From Escherichia phage PBM-1, in the sequence record PV029540: DNA of 64,000 bases; one strand, 5' to 3'. The notes below the pieces were generated by a model that was not told the origin of the DNA, did not search any database, and saw nothing but the letters and a program-made list of their open reading frames with translations. A program made the translations under genes and the position numbers. Position 1 is the first letter of the stretch, and each line of letters starts with the position of its first letter. Of the stretch, positions 14,711-15,410 are shown in pieces.

Positions 14711-14770
14711 CTCAGTAGTTGATAGGGTAATAGTATCACTACCCCATCTAAAAGTAAACTTATTTTTTAC
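14711..14770 (-). promoter_or_regulatory. T4-type early promoter
   Basis: Minus strand GTTTAC-N18-TACTAT upstream of small membrane ORF. Confidence 0.5.
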
Positions 14771-14993
14771 GAAAAATTGATTTATTTTCTGCTGCCCATT
14801 TTTCAATAACTACAGCAGGACCAGTAACAACAATTTTATCACCGTAATCTTCTGCGGCGAGTTGACCGAAATTATCTAATGCATCACGAAGAACTCCATG
14901 AGGCATTTCACCCATTTTATCTTTCTTGCCGGTGTAAATAAACTCAACTTTTACATCAGAAGATTCAGCGATAAACTCTTTGAAAGTTTTCAT
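14760..14993 (-). CDS. internal-protein-like capsid-targeted protein (~77 aa)
   Basis: N-terminal MKTFKEFIAES capsid-targeting-like sequence from Met5; conserved early promoter upstream. Confidence 0.6.
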   Translation of the reverse strand: MKTFKEFIAESSDVKVEFIYTGKKDKMGEMPHGVLRDALDNFGQLAAEDYGDKIVVTGPAVVIEKWAAENKSIFRKK

Positions 14994-15019
14994 TTTAGTT
15001 TCCATTCGATTGTTTTGTT

Positions 15020-15080
15020 TTGATAGGGTAATAGTATCACAACTAAAACCCTATGTAAACAACTTTGTGAAATTATTTTA
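15020..15080 (-). promoter_or_regulatory. T4-type early promoter
   Basis: Minus strand GTTTACA-N17-TACTAT upstream of IP-like gene; shares ~30 nt with 15350-15410. Confidence 0.5.
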
Positions 15081-15330
15081 AATCTTCTAATCGTTTCTTC
15101 ATCTTAGAACCATTTTTAGCAATTTCTCCTGCATCGGAGCATAACGCTAAAAGTGCTTTAACTTTAGTTTGGTCTCCTTTAAAAGATGAAGGATCGACTG
15201 CAGCAGCAAGTTCTTTAATACGAGAGAAAAGACGCTCAGCTTCAGCTAAAGCCATTCCAAGCTTTACTTCCATACCGTGGGAAGATTCAGTGATAGTAGT
15301 TTTTGCAGCAAACTCTTTGAAAGTTTTCAT
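15073..15330 (-). CDS. internal-protein-like capsid-targeted protein (85 aa)
   Basis: N-terminal MKTFKEFAAKT capsid-targeting-like sequence; conserved early promoter upstream, near-duplicate of the one at 15020-15080. Confidence 0.6.
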   Translation of the reverse strand: MKTFKEFAAKTTITESSHGMEVKLGMALAEAERLFSRIKELAAAVDPSSFKGDQTKVKALLALCSDAGEIAKNGSKMKKRLEDLK

Positions 15331-15349
15331 TTTATTTTCCTAATTAATT

Positions 15350-15410
15350 TTGATGAGGTAATAGTATCACTACCTCATCAGCATGTAAACAACTTTGTGA
15401 AATTATTTTA
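15350..15410 (-). promoter_or_regulatory. T4-type early promoter
   Basis: Minus strand GTTTACA-N17-TACTAT upstream of IP-like gene 15073-15330. Confidence 0.5.

Follow-up and report, generated by a model that had tools for sequence, protein, structure and literature searches.

When two small genes stand side by side, begin with the same residues, and lie behind nearly the same promoter, what has been repeated: the genes, or only what lies in front of them? We asked this of a pair of genes in Escherichia phage PBM-1 (sequence record PV029540), within a stretch of 64,000 nucleotides that we will call the window. A first-pass annotation, made from the letters alone, had described the pair as a duplicated cassette with diverged coding bodies. 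This description does not survive: the repeated unit is a regulatory and leader module, not a gene. The region is very probably the ipI-type polymorphic internal-protein (IP) locus of Tequatrovirus, with two known cassettes (ip5 and ip6) and with promoter-leader modules that recombine. Publications or annotations already cover the two genes, their leader, the repeats, and the notion of shuffling, and the locus contributes no new kind of feature. What the window and its relatives do offer is clean sequence-level examples of recombination inside repeats.

Two internal-protein genes in the slot of T4 ipI

All of the genes around the locus are on the minus strand. In the direction of transcription, they are gene 1 (16100-16825), 57A (15858-16100), 57B (15403-15858), ip5 or ipV (15073-15330, 85 aa), ip6 or ipVI (14760-14993, 77 aa), a gene for a trna.4-like small membrane protein (14516-14701, 61 aa), and a trna.3-like ORF (14108-14515). 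The first-pass annotation was right about the two small genes adjoining 57B, which it had placed here with products of 77 and 85 aa that both begin MKTFKEF. (Ip6 would have 81 aa if it were read from an upstream ATG, which sits inside the ribosome-binding site.) 57B is acb1, which encodes an anti-CBASS 2H phosphoesterase (Pfam PF23474 Acb1, E = 2.6e-60; phrog_755; gp57B in PST and T4). On the upstream side, 57B anchors the IP locus and is conserved. On the downstream side, the conserved anchor is the trna.4-like gene (phrog_1692; tRNA.4 in PST and T4), and trna.4 was found 3' of the cassettes in most of the loci that we surveyed.

Both small proteins belong to annotated families. Ip5 matches phrog_3499 (“internal head protein”) over its full length (E = 4e-49), and Ip6 matches phrog_8111 (“internal virion protein”), also over its full length (E = 1e-50). 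UniRef gives the name Ip5 to homologues in phages RB70 and T2 and the name Ip6 to homologues of Ip6, the PST record calls the genes ipV and ipVI, and RefSeq uses “internal head protein” and “internal virion protein” for T6. The families are shallow (5 clusters for Ip5 and 11 for Ip6 in our homologue searches), and searches of Pfam with Ip5, Ip6, and the trna.4-like protein matched no family. An Rfam scan of positions 9000-17000 returned tRNAs only. As DNA, the 1.5-kb region has about 98% identity with T6 and with Yersinia phage PST; matches to it occur in 786 phage records, and 196 of these cover at least 80% of it.

The IP loci that are known to vary are 57B-trna.4 and denV-e. In T4, the slot between 57B and trna.4 holds ipI, and ip5 and ip6 lie in this same slot. 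T4 ipI also resembles the genes here in its 57B-proximal promoter, which is nearly identical to ours, in the MKTFKEF start of its product, in the long leader ending in I-T-E (which it shares with Ip5), and in the size of the mature protein (about 7.5-8 kDa). The differences are that neither Ip5 nor Ip6 has a body related to IpI and that there are two cassettes here versus one in T4.

The starts of Ip5 and Ip6 had been called capsid-targeting-like, and they do conform to the capsid-targeting sequence of T4: both have aromatic residues at F4 and F7 and an I-x-E motif before a serine, which fits the gp21 cleavage motif of (I/L)-x-E with a small residue after it. In T4 IPIII, the first ten residues (MKTYQEFIAE) suffice for packaging; residues 4 and 7 are the main determinants of targeting, and residues 8 and 10 matter for processing by the gp21 protease. 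The leader of Ip6, MKTFKEFIAE, matches these rules exactly, and cleavage by gp21 after E10 (I8-A9-E10, then S) is a motif-based prediction. The leader of Ip5, MKTFKEFAAKTTITE, starts with MKTFKEFAAK and is longer, with a predicted gp21 cut after E15 (I13-T14-E15, then S). It is of the same long type as the leader of T4 IpI, MKTFKEFTSTTTPVSTITE, which begins MKTFKEF and ends in I17-T18-E19, followed by A. A relative helps to place the junction in Ip5. The body that begins SSHGMEVKLG follows MKTFKEFAAKTTITE here, but in the locus that we term L016 it follows a 10-residue leader, MKTYQTFMTE. As the L016 homologue runs from MTE directly into SSHGMEV, the junction between leader and body in Ip5 lies between E15 and S16.

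Beyond the leaders, the two proteins have little in common. When Ip5 and Ip6 are aligned, similarity is limited to residues 1-12. The predicted mature form of Ip5 has 70 aa (7.5 kDa, pI 9.2), and that of Ip6 has 67 aa (7.4 kDa, pI 6.5). Mature Ip6 would thus be near neutral, whereas the internal proteins of T4 are basic. AlphaFold2 models Ip5 as a two-helix hairpin, with moderate confidence (pLDDT 72), and Ip6 as a ferredoxin-like beta-alpha-beta-beta-alpha-beta fold (pLDDT 81). A Foldseek search of viral models with Ip6 returned the Ip6 family alone, with Ip6 of phage VR7 as the best match, and a sequence search of the PDB gave chance matches only (E about 0.6).

A repeated promoter and leader module

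A 71-nt repeat lies upstream of each of the two genes. Its copies (15018-15088 and 15348-15418) are 85% identical, contain an exact run of 32 nt, and have a start-to-start period of 330 nt. Each copy is a promoter on the minus strand. P1 (15348-15418), ahead of ip5, has an A/T-rich upstream stretch, a -35 box TTTACA at 15389-15384, and a TG-extended -10 box TACTAT at 15366-15361. P2 (15018-15088), which is ahead of ip6 and which we use as the reference copy, has TTTACA at 15059-15054 and a TG-extended TACTAT at 15036-15031. A third and weaker copy, P3 (14717-14787, also minus strand; -35 TTTACT at 14758-14753, -10 TACTAT at 14735-14730), is 62% identical to P2 and drives the trna.4-like gene. 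A nearly identical early promoter before each gene, as the first-pass annotation had proposed, is therefore borne out, and the promoters fit the T4-type early consensus. Its suggestion that the upstream elements are similar to each other also stands: the 29-mer that it quoted occurs exactly twice (15054-15082 and 15384-15412), as compared to 0 expected occurrences (100 shuffles). A second repeat family, D2, is 46 nt long with 83% identity between its copies and comprises the ribosome-binding site and the first leader codons, at 15295-15340 for ip5 (where the site is AGGAAAATAAAATG) and at 14958-15003 for ip6, both on the minus strand.

The repeat was expected to span about 60 nt, but it is longer than that and reaches coding sequence on both sides. 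At its 5' end, it includes the stop codon of the preceding ORF together with the three codons before it. (57B and Ip5 both terminate in DLK; the DLK and stop codons of 57B lie inside the P1 copy, and the last three codons and stop of ip5 lie inside P2.) After the stop come an A/T-rich stretch, GTTTACA, a variable spacer, and GTGATACTATTACC. Similarity then resumes at the ribosome-binding site and continues through the first seven leader codons, at which the aligned ip5 and ip6 genes match at all synonymous sites.

P1, P2, and P3 all fit TTTACW-N17-TAYWAT, which is the early-promoter consensus of the elements termed PeSLs (promoter-early stem-loops), as published for the PST/T4 pair. Matches to this pattern favor the transcribed minus strand by 13:1. 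P1 and P2 also pass a stricter sigma-70 scan with a TG-extended -10 box (P1 agrees with sigma-70 at 9/12). As a background set for the likeness of P1 and P2, we took every promoter of the window that fits the pattern (12 in all) and compared 73 nt of each, which gives 66 pairs. No other pair is as alike as P1 and P2, which have 81% identity versus a mean of 50% (sd 10%), so their similarity is above the consensus of the promoter class. The class does have a strong consensus, which accounts for part of the similarity of P1 and P2 (mean pairwise identity 50%). The stretch from 57B to trna.4 contains no T4 late promoter (TATAAATA); going upstream on the same strand, the first one is at 16456-16463, inside gene 1.

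Each of the three promoters can also form a hairpin around its -10 box. The spacer can pair with the -10 box and with the bases that follow it, and the -10 box is placed in the hairpin loop. The predicted hairpin of P1 (15351-15380, enclosing the -10 box) has a free energy of -17.4 kcal/mol (z = -4.4 versus shuffled controls), that of P2 (15023-15054, with an outer stem at 15015-15062) has -18.1 kcal/mol (z = -4.3), and that of P3 (14721-14748) has z = -2.7. Overall, the three have 12-13 pairs (for P2, 7 plus an inner 4) and energies of -16.9 to -18.1 kcal/mol. The arms vary among the copies yet still pair: GATGAGGTA with TACCTCATC, ATAGGGT with ACCCTAT, and GATGGGGTA with TACCCTATC. These hairpins are not classical terminators because the stems are not followed by a U-tract. 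A terminator scan of 14300-16200 found no site that resembles an intrinsic terminator, and a reading of the hairpins as “promoter plus terminator” is unsupported.

The module resembles the PeSLs and the repeats of Repoila (1994), which also combine a repeated intergenic early promoter with a stem-loop (Arbiol, 2010; Comeau et al., 2014). Like the elements here, PeSLs lie on either side of small non-essential genes in hyperplastic regions, and the breakpoints between related genomes fall inside the elements. The locus has a repeated early-promoter motif (three copies), a stable stem-loop, and breakpoints within the motifs. Arbiol (2010) credits Repoila (1994) with PeSL-like elements at the two IP loci and describes them as built on T4 early promoters and as having stem-loops that are weaker and A/T-rich. 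Comeau et al. (2014), who determined the sequence of PST, described PeSLs in it and listed five differences from T4 in internal proteins. The stems at our locus differ from those of the PeSLs of RB49 and phi1: they are A/T-rich, have neither a G-run/C-run nor a U-tract, and surround the -10 box, whereas the stems of RB49 and phi1 sit next to the promoter. Also, terminator activity and the formation of mini-circles have been demonstrated for the PeSLs of RB49 and phi1, while the elements here are known from sequence.

Exchange of cassettes among relatives

If the module is the unit that is repeated, then relatives might carry other bodies behind the same module. We surveyed 36 loci from IMG/VR around homologues of 57B, together with T4, T6, and PST. 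The number of leader-bearing ORFs between 57B and trna.4 varies from 0 to 5. Clustering of the 64 leader-bearing ORFs without their first 12 residues gives 19 groups of bodies that have no detectable similarity to each other, of which the Ip6 family is the commonest (16 members). With 0-5 cassettes and at least 19 unrelated bodies in relatives, this comparison across phages upholds the proposal that the locus is a diversifying one.

The differences between relatives end inside the repeats. In the locus L035, which encodes an identical 57B protein, ip5 is missing by exactly one clean 330-nt period of the repeat, and the junction lies within identical repeat. The T4 trna.4 promoter consists of the upstream half of P2 and the downstream half of P3, joined in the common -10 core. 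Another locus, L027, has a promoter that is a chimera of P2 and P1, and in the promoter of L020 a 19-nt stretch is duplicated. P1, which is nearly identical to the promoter between 57B and ipI in T4, stands before Ip5 here, before IpI in T4, and before a 102-aa protein in L034, three bodies that are unrelated. Indels that end in repeats fit modular shuffling by homologous recombination. In the reading that we propose, the promoter-plus-leader repeats provide the homology with which the recombination system of the phage inserts, deletes, and swaps cassettes, a step that the sequence comparison shows.

One alternative is that ip5 and ip6 are paralogues: a tandem duplication would have been followed by rapid divergence of the bodies, while selection kept the promoters and leaders. 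The tandem cassettes with their regular 330-nt period, their common promoter, ribosome-binding site, and leader, and the similar sizes of Ip5 and Ip6 are what a duplication would leave. Still, we consider this origin extremely improbable, as there is no similarity of Ip5 to Ip6 past residue 12 and the predicted folds belong to different classes (all-alpha for Ip5 and alpha/beta for Ip6). The body families are also independent of each other elsewhere, with ip6 alone in L035 and the ip5 body behind another leader in L016, and the presence of P1 ahead of three unrelated bodies argues against duplication as well. Another alternative is that the promoters are alike by convergence on the T4 early consensus and the leaders by selection for packaging, in which case the repeats would have no role in recombination. 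The leader is under functional constraint, and the extended consensus is common to all 12 of the early-type promoters in the window (12/12; mean pairwise identity of 50% over 73 nt), so some resemblance is to be expected on this account. But P1 and P2 top the 66 pairs at about 3 sd over the mean, and their identity extends into the last codons of the upstream ORF and, in the first seven codons, to all of the synonymous sites. Furthermore, it is precisely in the repeats that the relatives have their breakpoints (the 330-nt indel of L035, the chimeras of T4 and L027, and the duplicated stretch of L020). We therefore view convergence as an unlikely explanation and favor recombination between promoter-leader modules.

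Probable packaging, injection, and role in counter-defence

What would the two proteins do? By their match to the consensus, the promoters would be fired by the host's sigma-70 RNA polymerase right after infection. Judging from the sequences and from T4 genetics, the leader, with its aromatic residues at positions 4 and 7, would take the protein into the scaffolding core of the prohead, where the prohead protease gp21 would trim it past I-x-E (at E10 in Ip6 and E15 in Ip5, like E19 in T4 IpI). The mature proteins of about 7.5 kDa would then be injected with the DNA at the next infection. This scheme follows what is known for T4, each of whose internal proteins reaches the scaffolding core in about 360 copies, undergoes trimming by gp21, and accompanies the DNA on injection. 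Once in the cell, Ip5 and Ip6 would most likely block a host nuclease that attacks DNA with glucosyl-hydroxymethylcytosine, by analogy with Ip1, Ip2, and Ip3 of T4. Work from 2025 found that each of these three inhibits a different GmrSD type IV restriction enzyme, and its authors propose a like role for all of the proteins of Ip loci. Also, IpIII is required for infection of strain ECOR17. By this analogy, Ip5 and Ip6 are likely to be packaged and injected inhibitors of host restriction. Our literature search for virion proteomics of Ip5 and Ip6 found nothing relevant.

As there is no late promoter in the locus, the supply of Ip5 and Ip6 during head assembly would require either that the early proteins persist or that transcription reads through from upstream. 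This is an inference that the absence of predicted intrinsic terminators helps.

Could Ip5 and Ip6 instead be ordinary early proteins of the cytoplasm, which are neither packaged nor injected, act after they are expressed from the incoming genome, and carry the leader as a relic? The promoters directly upstream are all of the early type, the locus has no late promoter, and T4 IpIII without its leader is still functional if a plasmid in the host supplies the protein, all of which would suit a cytoplasmic site of action. Against this, the leaders of Ip5 and Ip6 retain every position that is known to matter for targeting and cleavage, and T4 ipI, which has the same promoter, encodes a classical example of a protein that is packaged and injected. 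The nucleotide conservation of the leader over dozens of unrelated bodies at this locus is also hard to explain if the leader is a relic, and so we find the cytoplasmic reading very doubtful. A different variant keeps the injection and changes the target: Ip5 and Ip6 might inhibit other first-line defences, forming a counter-defence island with acb1 (57B), and the hairpin at the -10 box might be a specific recombination signal rather than a by-product. The predicted folds offer no clue to function, and Ip6 is unusually non-basic for an internal protein, both of which are compatible with this variant. We offer it only as a tentative and rather improbable alternative to the reading that we prefer, in which the two proteins are injected inhibitors of restriction.

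Ip2 and Ip3 of T4, from the ipII/ipIII locus, are also close parallels. They have the 10-residue leader MKTYQEFIAE, which is cut after E10 as predicted for Ip6, and they are injected anti-restriction proteins that are each specific to one GmrSD variant. However, they are encoded at another locus, beside e, and their bodies are unrelated to those of Ip5 and Ip6. Another parallel is with clusters of anti-CRISPR genes, in which small and mutually unrelated counter-defence genes are likewise swapped at one fixed position. Those loci are marked by a common regulator gene, aca, and not by repeated promoter-plus-leader modules, and anti-CRISPR proteins are not known to be packaged by a leader peptide. 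The authors of the GmrSD work drew the analogy with anti-CRISPR clusters themselves. If our reading is right, the locus would show in textbook form how the injected counter-defence proteins of T4-like phages become diverse: small proteins that are unrelated but have a common packaging leader replace each other in a fixed slot, and the repeated promoter modules are the sites of exchange. Ip5 and Ip6 are widespread (the arrangement is found in 196 phage records) and, after the 2025 result for Ip1-Ip3, are obvious candidates for a GmrSD-type screen.

Head genes and other leader-bearing genes in the window

A phage whose internal proteins are processed by gp21 should itself encode this protease and the scaffolding core proteins. 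In the same window, we find genes for the portal protein gp20, gp67, gp68, and gp21 (42703-45603), with the ORF for gp21 cut at 45512. At this breakpoint (45512/45513), the truncated gene 21 is joined to the inside of rnh and to genes 34-37. We found no public phage genome that is colinear across 45512/45513, and the source assembly around this point deserves a check.

The first-pass annotation had counted five leader-bearing proteins in the window, and a scan with the leader motif MK[TS][FY]xxF confirms this count exactly. The five ORFs are at 4744-5046, 9659-10222, 10348-10821, 14760-14993, and 15073-15330, the last two being ip6 and ip5. The ORF at 4744-5046 had been called ipII, correctly so: this minus-strand gene encodes a 100-aa protein that is 93% identical to T4 IpII, and it forms a second IP locus, beside the lysozyme gene e. 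In T4, ipIII sits between ipII and e. Here, as the annotation had noted, no gene of the size of ipIII lies between them, and the gap is only 71 nt (5047-5117). The ORFs at 9659-10222 and 10348-10821 (minus strand) encode proteins of 187 and 157 aa. We considered whether these could be a displaced ipIII and ipIV and rejected this, as they have only the leader in common with T4 IpIII and PST IpIV. The pair (9659-10821; both match phrog_2280) occupies a third site, with e.8 on one side and the tRNA cluster on the other.

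Possible leader exchange and promoter architecture at the internal-protein locus

The leader of Ip6 (14963-14993) comes in two allelic forms, MKTFKEFIAESS in the window and in PST, and MKTYQEFIAETA in T6 (locus L002) and in locus L035, whereas the rest of the protein is almost the same in both. The first 21 nt of the MKTFKEFIAESS allele are the same as in the adjoining ip5. The two alleles and the match to ip5 suggest that leader segments have been swapped between cassettes. At L020 (4652-4751), one of the compared 57B loci, the promoter of a 102-aa internal-protein gene has GATACTATTACCTCATCAA duplicated in tandem. 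This looks like the scar of a misaligned recombination inside the -10/hairpin core.

Outside Tequatrovirus, the cassette architecture differs, because the first leader-bearing gene overlaps the stop codon of 57B (at position 3953 in the more distant T4-like phages) and no promoter element lies between the two genes in these loci. (The loci with this overlap are L005, L010, L014, L017, L020, L021, L023, L025, L026, L028-L031, L036, L037, and L039.) In the window, 57B (15403-15858), the anchor gene of the internal-protein locus, is the anti-CBASS nuclease Acb1, so two types of counter-defence function adjoin at this locus.

Leader-bearing genes beside the tRNA cluster

The region between e.8 and the tRNA cluster (9659-10900) looks like a third leader-bearing locus. 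It holds genes of 187 aa (N-terminus MKTYAEFLTE) and 157 aa (MKSYAQFLNE), which both belong to phrog_2280 and are annotated in public records only as hypothetical proteins. Upstream of each gene is a near-identical copy of a hairpin that is rich in G+C and carries a T-run, TAGCCCC..CCGAAAGGTTGGGGCTTTTTAG (10870-10900 and 10312-10342), and the locus also contains a late promoter, TATAAATA, at 10862-10869.

The tRNA set of the window (Arg, His, Asn, Tyr, Met, Thr, Ser, Gly, and Leu) is not the same as that of T4. A 210-aa ORF (13099-13731) occupies the position of tRNA-Gln in T4, T6, and PST. Its DH...N...H / CPNCH motif appears HNH-like on visual inspection; a Pfam search with this ORF gave no match. 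A second gene (12272-12922), which encodes a GIY-YIG segB-like endonuclease, lies between tRNA-Gly and tRNA-Ser.

The gene 21 junction and denV

Gene 21 (prohead protease) ends prematurely at 45512, and the sequence from 45513 onward is the interior of rnh in antisense orientation (context 44971-45898), followed by the tail-fibre genes 34-37. As the two sides of this junction are about 47 kb apart in relatives, genes 22, 23, 24 ... 33 are absent here. None of 50,697 phage records was colinear across the junction, which represents either a non-viable deletion or an assembly (contig) chimera.

The denV ORF (4135-4686) encodes 183 aa (T4: 138 aa), with a C-terminal extension that runs into the start of the adjoining ORF (3582-4172), as if the usual stop codon had been lost.
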